From positions 1,763,549 through 1,827,548 of the forward strand of contig OZ250140.1 in assembly GCA_965237475.1 (NCBI GenBank): DNA of 64,000 bases, read 5' to 3'. The notes under the pieces were generated by a model, which was given only the letters and a program-made list of their open reading frames with translations, ran no database searches and was not told where the DNA came from. The stretch comes from Dehalococcoidia bacterium. Lineage in GTDB: Bacteria > Chloroflexota > Dehalococcoidia > Bin125. Shown here piece after piece: positions 1,403-18,062 of this stretch. Positions within the stretch are counted from its first letter, which is position 1; every line of letters starts with the position of its first letter. The position numbers and the translations under genes are program-made.

Positions 1403-3304
1403 ATGACCGAGCACTCTCAGCCCGAATACGAAGTCGTCATCCAGCGCAACCGCGCTGTGCCCATGCGCGACGGCGTGCGCCTCGCAACCGATGTCTACCT
1501 GCCCGCGAGTGACGGCAAAGCGATCGACATCGCCTTCCCCACGATCCTGACCCGCACGCCGTACGACAAGAGCCCCAAGTCGGTCATCCTCGACGGTGAA
1601 TGGTGGGCCCGCCGCGGCTACGCCCGCGTGATCCAGGATGTGCGCGGCCGCTTCGCCTCCGAAGGCGACTTCTATCTGCTCAAGAACGAAGCCGAAGACG
1701 GCTACGACACGGTCGAGTGGCTTGCCGAGCAGCCCTGGTGCGACGGCCAGGTCGGCATGGTCGGCACCTCCTACCTCGCCTGGGTGCAGTCCGCCGCCGC
1801 CACCCAGAATCCGCCCCACCTCGCGGCGATGTGGGTCAATCAGGGCGCGTTCAACGGGCTCAGCTCATCGCTGCGGCAGGGCGGCGCGATCGAGCTGCGC
1901 TGGCTCGCCTGGGCATTCTGGAACGCCCCGGTCTCGCCCGAAGCCGAGGCCGACCCGATCCTCTACCAGGCCCTCGACCGCGCCGCCGTCGACCTGCGCG
2001 CCTGGCTCGCCCGCCTGCCCTGGCGCCCCGGCGACACACCCCTCTCGCTGACCAGGGACTACGAACGCTGGGCCATCGACCTGCTCACCCAGGCGACCGA
2101 GCAGGACTGGCTCTGGCAGCTCCCGAGCATGAACTTCGAGCGCTTCATCGACCAGACCGCCGACGTGCCGACGGTCTACAGCGGCGGCTGGTACGACTCC
2201 TACACGCGCGCCACCACCGAGTCCTTCGCCGCCTTCAGCCACGCCAAGGCGTCGCCGCAGTACCTGTTGATGGGTCCCTGGACGCACGGCGACGAACCGC
2301 TCGACCGCAGCTGGTCGGGCGATGCCGACTTCGGCCCCACCGCGCCGACCAGCGGCAACCTCGCCGAGAGCGTCCCGCACCTGCGGCTCCAGTTCTTCGA
2401 CCACGTGCTCAAGGGACTGCGTTCCGGCTGGGACCACGTCGCCCCGGCGCGCATCTTCGTGATGGGCGGCGGCAGCGGCCGGCGGATCGCCTCCGGCCGC
2501 ATCGACCACGGCGGCGCGTGGCGCGACGAGCAGGAGTGGCCGCCGGACCGCGCCGAGACGCACAGCTGGTACCTGCACGTCGACGGTTCGCTGCAGCCGG
2601 CGAAGGCCGCAGCCGGCGCCGCCGCCTCGCAGTACGACTTCGACCCGCGCCGACCGGTGCCCTCGATCTCGGCCAATGTCTCCTCGCTGCGGGAGTACGC
2701 GCCGCCCGACCCCGGCCTCAAAGACGGCATCTGGCCGCCCACGATTCGATCCCGCGAGCTGATCCAGCCCGGCGGCGCAGACCAGCGCGAGCGCCCCGAC
2801 GTGATGGGCGCAGAGCCGCCCTGGCTCCCGACCGCCGCCCGCAGCGACGTGCGCTCGTTCCGCACCGCCCCGCTCGACGCCGACCTGGAAGTCACCGGCC
2901 CGGTCACCGTCACGCTCTGGGTCTCGACCGATGCGCGCGACACCGATCTCACCGCGATCCTGCTCGACTGCTACCCGCCCAGCCCCGACTATCCCGAGGG
3001 CTACGCCCTGCGCCTCAGCGACAGCATCAAGCGGCTCCGCTTCCGCCTCGGCGCAGAGCGCGAAGACCTGGTTCGTCCCGGCGAGGTCGTCGAAGTCCCG
3101 ATCGAACTCTATCCCACCAGCAATCTGTTCGCCAGCGGACACCGCATCGGCGTCGAGATCAGCAGCTCCAACTATCCCCGCTTCGACATCAATCCCAACA
3201 CCGGCGAACCGATCGGCCAACACACCCACACCAAGGTGGCAAGAACCAAAATCTGGCACGATGCCAGCCACCCCAGCCGCATCGACCTCCCGGTCGTGGA
3301 ATAG
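1403..3304 (+). CDS. CocE/NonD family hydrolase (X-Pro dipeptidyl-peptidase S15-like)
   Basis: 633 aa. RDGVRLATDVYLP...TRTPYDK...GYARVIQDVRGRFASEG...VGMVGTSYLAW is the CocE/NonD alpha/beta hydrolase signature, with a C-terminal beta-sandwich. Confidence 0.8.
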   Translation: MTEHSQPEYEVVIQRNRAVPMRDGVRLATDVYLPASDGKAIDIAFPTILTRTPYDKSPKSVILDGEWWARRGYARVIQDVRGRFASEGDFYLLKNEAEDGYDTVEWLAEQPWCDGQVGMVGTSYLAWVQSAAATQNPPHLAAMWVNQGAFNGLSSSLRQGGAIELRWLAWAFWNAPVSPEAEADPILYQALDRAAVDLRAWLARLPWRPGDTPLSLTRDYERWAIDLLTQATEQDWLWQLPSMNFERFIDQTADVPTVYSGGWYDSYTRATTESFAAFSHAKASPQYLLMGPWTHGDEPLDRSWSGDADFGPTAPTSGNLAESVPHLRLQFFDHVLKGLRSGWDHVAPARIFVMGGGSGRRIASGRIDHGGAWRDEQEWPPDRAETHSWYLHVDGSLQPAKAAAGAAASQYDFDPRRPVPSISANVSSLREYAPPDPGLKDGIWPPTIRSRELIQPGGADQRERPDVMGAEPPWLPTAARSDVRSFRTAPLDADLEVTGPVTVTLWVSTDARDTDLTAILLDCYPPSPDYPEGYALRLSDSIKRLRFRLGAEREDLVRPGEVVEVPIELYPTSNLFASGHRIGVEISSSNYPRFDINPNTGEPIGQHTHTKVARTKIWHDASHPSRIDLPVVE

Positions 3305-13832: not shown

Positions 13833-14723
13833 GTGGCCACCACCGTCATCCGCAGCATGCTTTCCGTGCCGGGGATTCGTGAACGATTCATCGAGAAGGC
13901 GCGCGACGCGGCGGCCGATGTGCTCTGCTTCGACCTCGAAGACTCGGTCGCCTGGGACGACAAACCGACGGCGCGCGCGTTGCTCGGTCGGGTGCTGCCG
14001 GACTTCCCGAAGCGTGGTCGCAAGGTGTTCGTGCGGACGAACGGGTATGACACGGGCTTGATCGAGCAGGAGCTCGATGCACTGGTGCATCCCTGGCTCG
14101 ACGGGGTCAGCGTGTCCAAGGTCGAGACGCCGCGCGATGTCGAACGGATTGATGACTATCTGACGCTGCTGGAGCGGGCGCGGGGCTTGGCGGATGGTCA
14201 GGTCGCGATCGTGGCGTGGATTGAGAACGCGCACGCCGTGGCGAACGCGTATGAGATCTGCCAGGCGTCGGAGCGGTTGGTGGGGATTTGCGTCGGCGGC
14301 GAGGACTATGCGGTGAGCATTGGCGTGCGTCGCAGCAAGGGTGGCGAGGAGCTCGCGCACGCGCGCCGCACCGCGGTCAACGCGGCTCACGCCGCCGGGG
14401 TTCTGCCGCTGGATACGCCATGGACCGACATTCGCGATCCCGAGGGCTTCGAGGACGAGCTGCGCCGGATGCGTGAGATCGGTTTCCGCGGCAAGTTCTG
14501 CATCCACCCCGACCAGCTCGCTCCGGCCAACCGCGTCTTCGCGCCCGCCGAGGGGGACACCGAGTGGGCCCGGCGGGTGGTCGAGGCCTACGAGGACGGC
14601 GTGGCGAAGAACCTCGGCGCGGTCGCGCTGGACGGCCAGATGATCGACAAGCCGGTGCTCGAGCAGGCCGAGAACATGCTGGAGTGGTCGAGCCAGATCG
14701 CTGAAATGGAAGCGGCCCGCTAG
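13833..14723 (+). CDS. CitE-like CoA-ester lyase (HpcH/HpaI aldolase family)
   Basis: RSMLSVPG...CFDLEDSV...AIVAWIENAHAV...VGICVGGEDYA...FRGKFCIHPDQL. Confidence 0.75.
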   Translation: MATTVIRSMLSVPGIRERFIEKARDAAADVLCFDLEDSVAWDDKPTARALLGRVLPDFPKRGRKVFVRTNGYDTGLIEQELDALVHPWLDGVSVSKVETPRDVERIDDYLTLLERARGLADGQVAIVAWIENAHAVANAYEICQASERLVGICVGGEDYAVSIGVRRSKGGEELAHARRTAVNAAHAAGVLPLDTPWTDIRDPEGFEDELRRMREIGFRGKFCIHPDQLAPANRVFAPAEGDTEWARRVVEAYEDGVAKNLGAVALDGQMIDKPVLEQAENMLEWSSQIAEMEAAR

Positions 14724-14730
14724 GTCCGTC

Positions 14731-15003
14731 TCATGCGCCTGCGCGAACGGCGACGATCGACACGACGAGCGCGTTCACTTGATCGAAGTACACGGCAACG
14801 TTGTGGAACGTGAGCACGAAATCGGACGGCGCGCTGGGCTGGTCGCGCAAGTCAGTGACCCGCGGATGGCTTGGTGTCGGGTCGAGGAACAGCTGCGCCA
14901 ACGCCCGCTCGTAACGAACGCCGTCTAACCACGAGAGCCCGGCCACGTCGGCCTCAGCCTCCCGCGTGAGGGCAACGTCGTATCCCCGCGGCCACATGCT
15001 CAA
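14731..15003 (-). CDS. RelE/ParE-fold type II toxin
   Basis: 90 aa. YDVALTREAEADVAGL...FVLTFHNVAVYFDQVNALVVSIVAV resembles the RelE/ParE layout. Overlaps the upstream antitoxin gene by 4 nt. Confidence 0.55.
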   Translation of the reverse strand: MSMWPRGYDVALTREAEADVAGLSWLDGVRYERALAQLFLDPTPSHPRVTDLRDQPSAPSDFVLTFHNVAVYFDQVNALVVSIVAVRAGA

Positions 15004-15581
15004 CGACGGACAGCCCGACGGACACGACCAGCCGCGATATCAGCTCTCCCGCGCCGTAGCTGTGCGCGGAGTTCGTCGTCCGTCGCAAGCTGCCTGAGTA
15101 CCCAGTCGATATCCGCCTCGGGCACATCTGCTTCCCGGTCGGCTGCTTCGAGTTCGGAACGCAGGAACTCATGCATCGTGGACCAGCTAAATGGGCTGTT
15201 GTCAACGCGGCAGTTGGCCAATGCCCAGGGCGGCTCCTGCGGCGATAGCGCGGCCAGCTCCGCGGCGGAGCGGTCGCCAAACCGCTCGTAGACGAACCGG
15301 ACGGCGCCAGCAATTCCCTGCGTGGGCACGGCCAGGGGCACGGGCGACAACACCGACGGCACGGAGTCGCAGCCCCCGTAGCAGTCCCAGACTTCGCGCA
15401 CGATAGGTCCATCATGGGCAACTTCGATTGGATTCCCAAACAGCGCGTCGCCGTAGAGCGCCAGCGCGAAGCCCTGCGCGTAGCAGCACAGGCGCTGCAG
15501 TTGCATGTGCTCGAGCTGTTTCTCCTCCGCGTCCGCAAGCGTGAGGAACCAATCAGCGACATCCAACACAGAAAGGACCAT
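15000..15581 (-). CDS. Panacea-domain (DUF4065 / SocA-like) antitoxin
   Basis: MVLSVLDVADWFL...LQRLCCYAQGFALALYGDALFGNPIEVAHDGPIVREVW matches the DUF4065/Panacea signature. Charged C-terminal tail. Confidence 0.65.
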   Translation of the reverse strand: MVLSVLDVADWFLTLADAEEKQLEHMQLQRLCCYAQGFALALYGDALFGNPIEVAHDGPIVREVWDCYGGCDSVPSVLSPVPLAVPTQGIAGAVRFVYERFGDRSAAELAALSPQEPPWALANCRVDNSPFSWSTMHEFLRSELEAADREADVPEADIDWVLRQLATDDELRAQLRRGRADIAAGRVRRAVRR

Positions 15582-15608
15582 GAGGGCCTCCGCTGTCAGT
15601 GTACGAGC

Positions 15609-16793
15609 CTAGAGCGCGCCCGGGGGCGGCTGGTTGAGGCGGAACGCGCCCGTACGGTCGTAGGCGCTGTCGGCCACGTAGATGTGTTGCGACGCTGCGG
15701 TGAGGTCGCGCAGGACCTTCTGCAGCGGGTGCGTCTCGAACGCCGCCGCGCCGCCGCCCGCGTGCTGCGCGAAGCGCGCGATTTCGAGGCACGCGTCGGT
15801 CACCCAGGTCACCATGCCGCGAATCCGCGCGTCGTCGGCCGGGGAGATCTGCTCACCGCGCTCGCGCTGCGCCATCGCGCCGTCGAGCACATCCAGCGCG
15901 TAGGCGCGGGCTGCTTCCTAGCGACAGGACGCCTCGCCGAAGGCGTGCTGGAACGAGCCGCGCGCCGCGATCGGCGCGCTTGAGCCGAAGCGCACGCGCG
16001 AGGCGTCAGCGCCGATCAGCTCCAGCGCCCGCCTCGCCGAGCCGAGCGCGATGCCGGTGTGTCCGGGGCTGAGAAATGTGATCGTGGGCAGCTCGAACCA
16101 CGGCCCGCCGCGCGCGATGTGGCGACCACCGAACGGCAGCGCGAAGGCGTTCGGTACAAACACATCGTCGAATCGGTAGTGGTTGCTGCCCGTGCCCTCC
16201 AGCCCCATCACGCGCCACGAGTCTTCGATCTCCACGCTGCCGATCGGGACGACCGAACCGACCGCGCGCGGAACCCCACCCGCCGCAGCGGACGGCGGCG
16301 CAGGGTTCTCCACGATCGCGTTCGCCAGCACCCACTCGCAGTGGCGGATGCCGCTGGCGAAGGACCAGCGTCCGTCCAGGTGGTGGCCCTCGTCGACGAG
16401 GCGCGCGCGGCCTTCCGGATTAGCTGTCCCGGCGACGCGCGGGAATCCGTCGCCGAAGACGGCGTCAAGACCCTCGCCAGCCGCCATGTGCGCGCCGACC
16501 ACGCCCGCCGTCTCGGACTGGATCATCGCCACCCAGCCGCTCGAGCCATCGGCCACCGCCAGGCGCTCGAACACCTCCACCTGCGTGGCCGGATGCACGT
16601 CGTGGCCGCCGACCTCGAGCGGCGAGGCCATCGCGAAGATGTCGGCCGCCTCGAGCGCCAGGACGGATGATTCGCTGAGCGTGCGGAGCTGGGTCGATTC
16701 GTCGGCGTGCTCCCTCAGGACGTCGTGCAGCGATTCGGCGCGTTCCAGCCAGGCGCTGCGCGCACATCGCCGTTCGGGGGTGGTTCGACTCAT
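15609..16793 (-). pseudogene. acyl-CoA dehydrogenase-like (HsaA/flavin monooxygenase type) paralog interrupted by an in-frame TAG
   Basis: ORFs 15918-16793 and 15609-15890 are in the same frame, separated by one TAG at 15918-15920. The joined product (~394 aa) is colinear with the intact paralog at 16853-18025. Confidence 0.6.
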
Positions 16794-16852
16794 GGGGCGC
16801 CTCCGATTCGCAGATCAAGCGTGGTGACTCACTGGCTGTTTCACAAGCTGCC

Positions 16853-18019
16853 TCAGAGCCCCGGCCGGACGGGGAGGCCGAGCGCGTGGCGGCCGACGCG
16901 CTGGAAGGAGCCATCGGCGACGATCACGTGCTGCGAGACGGTCTGAACCTCGCGCAGCAGCCGCTGCAGCGGGTGGTCGAGGAAGACCGCATCGCCGCCC
17001 GCGGCGCGGTGGGCGGTGCGGATCACCGACTCCGCGGTGCGCGTCGCCCAGGCCGCCGCGCTGCGCGCCGTGTCGTCCAGCTTCACGGCGTCCGCGACAT
17101 CGCGAACCGGCGCGTCGGCCAGGTCGCGGAAGAGCTGGACGCCGTGACCGCGAATCGCGCGCGTCGCCACGACGATCTCGCCGAGTTCGAGTTGGAAGGT
17201 CTCGCGCTCGGCCAGCGGCGCGCGCGAACCGAGCCGGACCCGCGTCGAGGCGATCTCCGTGACCTCCTGAATCGCCCGCTCGGCGAGCCCCAGCGCGATC
17301 CCGTAGGCGGCGGGACAGAGGAAGGTCACGGTCGGCCGGGCGACCCAGCCCGATCCGCGCAAGACCGGCTGCTCGAGCGGCTGAAGACGGAAGTCCTCGC
17401 TGACGAACTCGTCATCCAGCCGGTAGTGGTTGCTGCCCGTGCCCTGCAGCCCGGCCACATGCCAGGTGTCCTCGATCTGAACCCGCTCACGTGGGACCGC
17501 GGCGGTGACCAGTTCGGGCGGCCCCGGCTCACGTTCCACACCGTCGTTGAGGATGCCCTGCGCGATCACCCAGTCGGCGTGATGGATGCCCGAGCCCCAA
17601 CCCCAGCGCCCGCTGATGCGCCAGCCGCCCTCAACCGGCCGGGCCTCGCCGCCGGGGAACGGTTGGCCGGCGGCGACCGGCCAGCGCTCCGCGCCGAAGG
17701 CGCGCTCGATGCCCGCGTCGGGCAGTCGCGACCCGAGCCAGGCTGACTCATGTGCGCCGATCATCACGCACCATCCGGCCGAGGCGTCGTGCGCCGCCAG
17801 CGCAGCAGTGACTTCGACATGTCCATCGGGGGCGATGTTCGCGCCGCCGACCTCGGCTGGTGCGAAGATCGAAAAGAGCTGGTGTTCGTGCAGCGCGTCG
17901 ACGACTGGCGCGGCCAGTTGGCGCAGCCGTTCGTTCTCCACGGCATGTGCGCGCAGGGTCGGGCCGACCGCCTCCGCCGCCTCCAACCACTGGCCGTACG
18001 ACGCGTCGTGAGCGCTCAT
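16853..18019 (-). CDS. acyl-CoA dehydrogenase family protein (HsaA-like, type 2)
   Basis: Likely ATG at 18019, preceded by a GAGGAGG RBS. The ORF track begins at a TTG at 18025. Paralog of the interrupted gene above. Confidence 0.75.
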   Translation of the reverse strand: MSAHDASYGQWLEAAEAVGPTLRAHAVENERLRQLAAPVVDALHEHQLFSIFAPAEVGGANIAPDGHVEVTAALAAHDASAGWCVMIGAHESAWLGSRLPDAGIERAFGAERWPVAAGQPFPGGEARPVEGGWRISGRWGWGSGIHHADWVIAQGILNDGVEREPGPPELVTAAVPRERVQIEDTWHVAGLQGTGSNHYRLDDEFVSEDFRLQPLEQPVLRGSGWVARPTVTFLCPAAYGIALGLAERAIQEVTEIASTRVRLGSRAPLAERETFQLELGEIVVATRAIRGHGVQLFRDLADAPVRDVADAVKLDDTARSAAAWATRTAESVIRTAHRAAGGDAVFLDHPLQRLLREVQTVSQHVIVADGSFQRVGRHALGLPVRPGL

Positions 18020-18062
18020 GATCAAGCCTCCTCAGCCGGGGCGCTCAGGCTACTCGCGCCTA

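Follow-up and report, generated by a model that had tools for sequence, protein, structure and literature searches.

We analysed a pair of overlapping genes on the minus strand of a 64,000-nucleotide (nt) stretch of DNA (hereafter the window, i.e. positions 1,763,549 to 1,827,548 of contig OZ250140.1) from a Dehalococcoidia bacterium. The upstream gene (15000..15581, ATG start) encodes a protein of 193 amino acids (aa) made of a Panacea core, matched by PF13274, and a C-terminal tail, and is referred to below as panA-like, the presumed antitoxin gene. The downstream gene (14731..15003, TTG start) encodes a 90-aa protein for which AlphaFold and Foldseek predict a RelE/ParE fold, and is referred to as panT-like, the presumed toxin gene. 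On balance, we consider it fairly probable that the two genes together form a toxin-antitoxin-like module on the chromosome, belonging to the PanAT class. An earlier note on this DNA had described the two open reading frames (ORFs), their sizes and a 4-nt overlap between them, all of which were recovered at the same coordinates on the minus strand.

The shared tetranucleotide TTGA (15000..15003, minus strand) combines the TTG start of panT with the TGA stop of panA, and a GGAGG Shine-Dalgarno sequence, i.e. a ribosome-binding site, lies 5 nt 5' of the panA ATG (15587..15591, minus strand); both were read from the sequence. A second possible start for panT is the ATG at 14997, two codons downstream of the TTG, and the database homologue P0001 (88 aa) was called from this ATG-type start. 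As the 4-nt overlap recurs, with GTG or ATG starts, in the homologous pairs of loci L001, L007, L008, L010 and L016, the overlapping TTG is probably the real start, which would imply translational coupling of panT to panA. Both genes are genuine protein-coding genes, since their frames are conserved in relatives and the ratio of nonsynonymous to synonymous substitution rates (dN/dS) is low, indicating purifying selection (0.13-0.35 for panA and 0.14-0.36 for panT, in comparisons with unsaturated synonymous sites). GC-rich DNA yields many spurious ORFs; a chance origin of the pair is ruled out by this selection and frame conservation, and a 202-aa ORF read in a different frame of the minus strand (14954..15562) was rejected as spurious. 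Three database "homologues" of PanA (P0008, P0010 and P0011) are chimeras switching into this alternative frame (14954-15562); found on low-coverage long-read contigs, they are probably products of indel errors and not real variants.

The 193-aa protein is a member of the Panacea family. The domain (DUF4065/SocA-like) covers approximately residues 28-122 (15216..15500, minus strand) according to the Pfam match and the alignment of relatives. The window PanA scores 30.5 bits (E 7.5e-7) against PF13274 (SocA_Panacea), above the Pfam gathering cut-off of 25.7, the match spanning residues 28-68 only of this divergent protein (profile positions 1-41 of 113). PF13274 is matched by all 13 PanA relatives of the full-length alignment (best E 5e-22), three of which cover profile positions 1-113 at residues ~27-124, and the motifs LQ.LCyYAQGF and GP are invariant among the aligned relatives. 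Using tblastn, phage genes annotated DUF4065/PanA were found to match the N-terminal ~130-150 residues of PanA. The peptide that the earlier note had singled out as a Panacea signature (LDVADWFL...LQRLCCYAQGFALALYGDALFGNPIEVAHDGPIVREVW) is present in the protein, and the assignment is borne out by the PF13274 score. The NCBIfam SocA equivalog gave 17 bits with PanA, against a cut-off of 190. The PanA family profile also matches the N-terminal domain of DnaA (PDB 10wy_A, E 6e-4) over the stretch 'YAQGFAL...PL..E.IE...P' (window 15380-15500, residues ~28-68), which may be due to chance or may indicate that the Panacea core and DnaA domain I are distantly linked.

The structure of PanT was modelled with AlphaFold from a 30-sequence alignment (predicted local distance difference test, pLDDT, 87.2; predicted template modelling score, pTM, 0.78), this model replacing one based on a 6-sequence alignment (pLDDT 55.7). 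The strands (E) and helices (H) of the model, i.e. E9-12, H14-21, H25-40, E49-51, E62-66, E69-75 and E80-88, are predicted in the order E-H-H-E-E-E-E, which is that of the RelE/ParE toxin fold. When the model was compared with the PDB using Foldseek, the top 50 matches were mostly RelE/YoeB/YafQ/HigB/ParE toxins, with template modelling (TM) scores of 0.6-0.74 and a probability of ~1. The best were RelE of Thermus thermophilus (TMq 0.70) and RelE1 of Mycobacterium tuberculosis (0.69/0.74); M. tuberculosis RelE2, Escherichia coli RelE, YafQ, YoeB and HigB-type toxins were also matched, as were the ParE structures 6x0a, 5ceg, 6xrw and 7r5a. At the sequence level, two of 30 PanT relatives weakly match PF05016 (ParE_toxin, best E 8e-4) and PF15781 is also weakly matched in relatives. 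The PanT family was further aligned by hhalign with a mini-profile of RelE/YoeB/ParE sequences, validated against the PDB, and the alignment was collinear from end to end over 78 columns. PanT is thus predicted to have a RelE/ParE fold, on the grounds of modelled structure rather than of sequence statistics, in agreement with the fold that the earlier note had proposed for the 90-aa ORF. Helical PDB matches to Protein A, obtained with the PanT family profile, were rejected as a short 'L..DPS/T' helix-end likeness.

PanA carries a C-terminal extension (approximately residues 135-193; 15003..15179, minus strand) that is presumed to bind the toxin, given its co-occurrence with PanT and its profile matches in the PDB. 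It contains the motif RGRADIAAGR (residues 177-186; 15024..15053, minus strand), delimited from the alignment columns and the matches to RelB1 and ParD, in which R177, D181, I182, A184, G185 and R186 are invariant, the paralogues being 35-97% identical. When the tail profile was searched against all PDB sequences (177,635), M. tuberculosis RelB1 ranked first (9g12_C, residues 62-82, 'EAIREGLADVAAGRFVSNDEI') and Pseudomonas aeruginosa ParD third (6xrw_B, '...EGLADANAGRL'), RGRADIAAGR being aligned with 'GLADVAAGR' of RelB1 and 'GLADANAGR' of ParD. It seems unlikely that two antitoxins of RelE/ParE toxins would appear in the top three by chance, and the toxin partners of both are among the fold matches of PanT. 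RelB1 is known to wrap RelE1 via its C-terminal helices alpha2-alpha4 (PMC12620021). The tail had no match in Pfam and, as far as we checked, a RelB/ParD-like tail is not among the named Panacea-associated domains.

Across 71 loci, the tail (hidden Markov model (HMM) positions ~150-196) is found in nearly every PanA that is followed by PanT, while about 35 PanA homologues from other phyla and without PanT end at HMM position ~147 and lack it; the loci are phylogenetically related, so that these counts are not independent. In L071, an ORF of about 60 aa consisting of the tail only ('...LMTRDRLFRELTERGLADLEAKRF...', 2811-2993) directly precedes a PanT homologue (3001-3294), which suggests that the tail may be a portable partner-binding element. 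This tail-only ORF may be a minimal antitoxin or the remnant of a deleted PanA, and the L071 pair lies just after a gene for a ClpP-like SDH-type serine protease (PF01972, 1648-2694). Another tail-bearing PanA, P0012 (L003:4001-5265; also in L004-L006), is 35% identical and overlaps by one base with an Amidase_2 endolysin-like gene. The surrounding region is phage-like (HNH, SLT), with a Gp49 (HigB/RelE-like) and helix-turn-helix (HTH) pair lying divergently upstream, and P0012 might be an orphan antitoxin or a phage-borne anti-toxin decoy.

A word-indexed search of 5.8 billion clusters returned 11 clusters for PanA and five for PanT, and HMMER with the PanT profile gave 29 matches at E<=1e-3 among 1.84 billion representative proteins. 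Eight PanT-family clusters and two PanA clusters were looked up, none of which had a name given by its source. The nearest genome is the Dehalococcoidia metagenome-assembled genome (MAG) OZ253504.1, whose PanA is 96% identical. About 29 sites were found at which PanT immediately follows a PanA homologue; they are distributed over 22 loci of Dehalococcoidia MAGs and metagenome contigs (L001, L002, L007, L008, L010, L011, L016, L017, L025, L031-L034, L037, L038, L042, L043, L046, L048, L050, L069 and L070), and all PanT-bearing loci to which a taxon is assigned are Dehalococcoidia MAGs. Across these loci PanA identity falls to 26%, and several of them have unrelated flanking genes. PanT-seeded scans of JGI metagenomes gave zero and one loci, scans of IMG/VR viral contigs recovered no PanT relative, and a tblastn search of plasmids with PanT gave none either.

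The pair is flanked by metabolic genes, as the earlier note had reported. An HpcH/HpaI-type lyase gene (13833..14723, plus strand; PF03328, 3.5e-49) is convergent with it, and two acyl-CoA-dehydrogenase-like (ACAD) genes lie on the same strand, one directly upstream of panA (15609..16793, minus strand; ACAD_B) and the other beyond it (16853..18025, minus strand; ACAD_A). The gap between panA and the stop codon of the ACAD gene preceding it is only 27 nt. In the window, ACAD_B has an in-frame TAG (15918-15920, minus strand) where L010, L016 and L009 have TAC (Tyr). The gene is thereby split into ORFs of 291 and 93 aa, corresponding either to a nonsense pseudogene or to a base error; a frameshift was rejected as the cause, the change from TAC to TAG being in frame and without indel relative to L010.

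We then compared two sites among related loci, i.e. site A, between ACAD_A and ACAD_B, and site B, between ACAD_B and the lyase gene. In the window, site A is empty and site B holds the pair under study (pair 2). L010 has pair 1 at site A and pair 2 at site B, and L016 has pair 1 at site A with an insertion sequence (IS) remnant at site B. L007 has pair 1 at site A, and an intact PanA2 at site B, whose panT is cut after about 22 codons by the same IS end. L009 is empty at site A and has the same intact PanA2 and cut panT at site B, where two transposase genes are present. L069 has two pairs at site A and one at site B. The flanks of L010, L016, L007 and L009 are 92-96% identical in DNA to those of the window. 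The window, L010 and L016, with flanks 94-96% identical in DNA, thus differ in having pair 2 only, both pairs or pair 1 only, respectively, and the distribution of the pair is patchy, i.e. accessory, one pair having been lost through an IS. Its sequence also diverges rapidly: between L069 and the window, flanking proteins are 76-93% identical and PanA and PanT of the same site just 36-42%.

The extra PanA-PanT pairs found between ACAD genes (L010:1881-2740, L016:3950-4809, L007:1882-2741 and L069:4600-6297) are 30-37% identical to the window pair, and the ACAD-PanA-PanT unit looks tandemly duplicated; in the window, site A is only a 48-bp spacer (16805-16852). In three loci (L016:6044-6255, L007:4620-4733 and L009:2700-5300), pair 2 has given way, wholly or in part, to an IS end or remnant that is rich in G/C and forms hairpins ('GGAATCCTC.GCACAAGTCGG...CCCCTCTCC...'). 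At site B of L009, DDE_Tnp_1 and IS110 transposase genes are found; within the population, this mobile element is active at that position. The earlier note had placed the pair away from any mobile element, which is true within the window; in the close relative L009, IS elements lie exactly in the pair, and near-identical genomes differ in whether they have the pair at all.

In several loci panT is broken beside an intact PanA, namely through the IS event of L007 and L009, through a Gln codon changed to TAG in the third L069 copy, and, in L031, through a TAG in place of the codon for Lys45, which is otherwise invariant. A stop in panT was also found in L002, again with PanA intact; it may be a sequencing error, the contig having 3x coverage. 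L034 is a possible counter-example to such decay of panT first. Most loci were found via PanA searches, so that the asymmetry can be taken as a hint but not as a statistic. The rapid divergence, the dispensability and the loss of panT first all fit a toxin-antitoxin module.

From these observations, the following mechanism can be proposed. PanA would be made first, and the 4-nt overlap would couple the translation of PanT to it. Free PanT is presumed to be harmful, and would inhibit growth by a mechanism other than RNase activity. PanA would hold PanT inactive, probably chiefly via its tail (residues ~135-193, with RGRADIAAGR), which is similar to the C-terminal helices that RelB/ParD/YefM-type antitoxins wrap around their toxins. 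By analogy, the globular Panacea domain would serve as an accessory or sensor platform, an arrangement known as "linear neutralisation", which has been demonstrated experimentally for other multidomain PanAs, i.e. those with Phd-C, PAD1 and ZBD elements (PMC10440598).

A number of observations weigh against this interpretation. Regarding the toxin, searches of Pfam, NCBIfam and PADLOC with the window PanT yielded no match at E<=1. Foldseek E-values were modest (1e-3 to 1e-1) and, with an hhalign probability of 19.5%, sequence homology of the PanT family to RelE/ParE is not significant. PanT is acidic (isoelectric point (pI) 4.8 and net charge -4 in the window, family median pI 4.6), and so is PanA, which is atypical for a toxin-antitoxin pair. 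The family alignment reveals no conserved polar catalytic residue. Regarding the tail, the matches to RelB1 and ParD have E-values of 0.12-0.18 over about 20-45 residues, and two exceptions to its co-occurrence with PanT were found, P0012 having the tail and no PanT, and L034 having an intact PanT beside a PanA whose degenerate tail lacks the motif. Regarding regulation, Pfam detected no HTH, ribbon-helix-helix (RHH) or AbrB DNA-binding domain in PanA, and neither a sigma-70-like promoter or terminator nor an operator-like inverted repeat or palindrome was found when looked for upstream of panA. Classical operon autoregulation by PanA is not supported, since both the DNA-binding domain and the operator and promoter are wanting; many published PanA proteins likewise have no DNA-binding domain (PMC10440598). 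Given the 27-nt gap and the lack of a recognisable promoter, expression of the pair may instead ride on the transcript of the upstream ACAD gene. Finally, the pair also adjoins ACAD genes in genomes that are distant relatives (L001, L069), a stability of placement that need not be expected of a selfish mobile module.

Part of these observations would be accounted for by the main rival explanation, in which the pair is domesticated or degenerate: PanT would keep its fold, be non-toxic and have a host role, e.g. in regulating or chaperoning the neighbouring ACAD-like enzymes. The acidity of the PanT family and its want of conserved catalytic residues would then be expected, as would the fact that the PanT subfamily of the window is the shortest and does not have the C-terminal extension of other PanT members. 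The genomic context points in the same direction, since placement right after ACAD paralogues is kept in distant relatives, ACAD_A and ACAD_B alternate with two or three pairs in L010, L007 and L069, and co-transcription is suggested by the short gap, for which no promoter was found. The association is not general, however, no ACAD gene being found within 4 kb of the pair in L011, L048, L038, L025, L046, L050 and L017. Moreover, comparison of near-identical genomes shows the pair to be dispensable, and it diverges far faster than its neighbours; knock-outs strike panT while panA persists, which fits a harmful product better; and in the window the pair is intact beside an ACAD_B gene with a nonsense codon. 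We regard domestication as unlikely, although it deserves to be kept in mind ahead of the other rivals, and retain the toxin-antitoxin interpretation.

A second rival would have PanT act as a classical RelE-type, ribosome-dependent mRNA endonuclease. Its closest structural neighbours are indeed RelE rather than ParE proteins (2khe, 9g12, 3g5o, 4fxe), and the best match of the PanA tail, RelB1, is the partner of a RelE RNase. Activity nevertheless depends on K52, R61, R81 and Y87 in E. coli RelE and on R60, R65, R85 and Y89 in M. tuberculosis RelE1 (PMC12620021), while in the collinear hhalign alignment the PanT positions equivalent to RelE K52/R61/R81 are non-basic and unconserved. The PanT sheet has no conserved basic residue, good conservation of polar residues is limited to D9, D41, T43, N46 and N77, and the chain stops at residue 90, lacking the C-terminal Tyr-bearing helix. 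The charge of PanT also contrasts with that of the RelE/YoeB/ParE references, which are basic (pI 7.9-11, and 9.5-11 for the RelE references). Because PanT is acidic and has neither the RelE catalytic residues nor the Tyr helix, RelE-type mRNA cleavage appears unlikely from its sequence, and we give this rival little credence. As a guess, weakly held, a ParE-like action (e.g. on DNA gyrase), or another protein-targeting or non-nucleolytic action, is favoured over mRNA cleavage. ParE-type gyrase inhibitors need C-terminal residues for their toxicity; the window PanT lacks the C-terminal extension of other family members.

Going further, one may speculate that PanT represents an undescribed acidic branch of the RelE/ParE fold, neither RNase nor classical ParE, with a new target or a non-toxic role, which would be neutralised by a portable RelB-like tail either fused to Panacea or alone as in L071; arrays of two or three pairs with ACAD paralogues would then hint at a functional tie to the ACAD-like enzymes. 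We consider this broader scenario rather improbable.

A role in anti-phage abortive infection, in which Panacea would sense a phage cue and release PanT, would be a possible function within the toxin-antitoxin interpretation rather than a true alternative to it. Presence/absence polymorphism, rapid divergence and several paralogues per locus are features of defence genes, a sensor role has been proposed for Panacea (PMC10440598), and the tail-bearing P0012, which stands alone in a phage-like lysis region, could be an anti-defence decoy. As PADLOC gave no match, no defence genes were seen nearby and viral contigs contained no PanT relatives, we hold such a role to be doubtful.

With regard to novelty, ParE is among the partner domains of Panacea already described in PanAT systems, in which the antitoxin gene more commonly comes first (Kurata et al. 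2022, PMC8832971), so that the pairing of Panacea with a ParE-like toxin is published and not new as such, and the present pair opens no new class of system. In the wider toxin-antitoxin network, RelE/ParE are among the commonest folds, though not specifically as Panacea partners (Ernits et al. 2023, PMC10440598). Some modest novelty lies in a distribution restricted to Dehalococcoidia, in a Panacea protein bearing a RelB/ParD-like tail, in a partner that is acidic and lacks catalytic residues, and in the arrays of pairs interleaved with ACAD paralogues. If functional, the pair would extend the PanAT network to the Dehalococcoidia (Chloroflexota), a lineage that has been little studied and is largely uncultured. 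It would also provide a natural fusion of Panacea with a RelB/ParD-type tail, supporting the view of Panacea as an accessory or sensor domain and of the linear element as the one that neutralises. The acidic RelE/ParE-fold partner without catalytic residues additionally offers a cheap test case for the functional breadth of that fold.

Among known systems, SocAB of Caulobacter, a type VI toxin-antitoxin system whose SocA is the founding Panacea protein, has the Panacea domain in common with the pair described here, which differs in scoring below the SocA equivalog cut-off, in having a partner that is not SocB-like and in showing no sign of a ClpXP-adaptor function. Compared with RelBE, YefM-YoeB and ParDE (e.g. 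M. tuberculosis RelBE1, 9G12, PMC12620021, and P. aeruginosa ParDE, 6XRW), the predicted toxin fold and the antitoxin-first order are alike, and PanA, in its C-terminal region, carries a motif like the 'GLAD-AAGR' of the toxin-wrapping region of RelBE and ParDE antitoxins. Unlike in these systems, the N-terminus of PanA is Panacea instead of a Phd/YefM or ribbon-helix-helix DNA-binding dimerisation domain, and PanT is acidic, devoid of RelE catalytic residues and missed by the RelE/ParE profiles of Pfam and NCBIfam. The pair differs from the PanAT systems described so far by a partner family that has been seen only in metagenomes and MAGs, all taxon-labelled members being Dehalococcoidia, and by an appended element which, as known here from sequence and prediction, takes the form of a RelB/ParD-like tail at the C-terminus, with GxADIAAGR as its motif. 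It nonetheless shares with PanAT the PF13274 domain, the antitoxin-first organisation of a two-gene chromosomal locus with less than 100 nt between the genes, and conservation across genomes, and both ParE-like partners and appended neutralising elements (Phd-C, PAD1 and ZBD) have already been described in that class.

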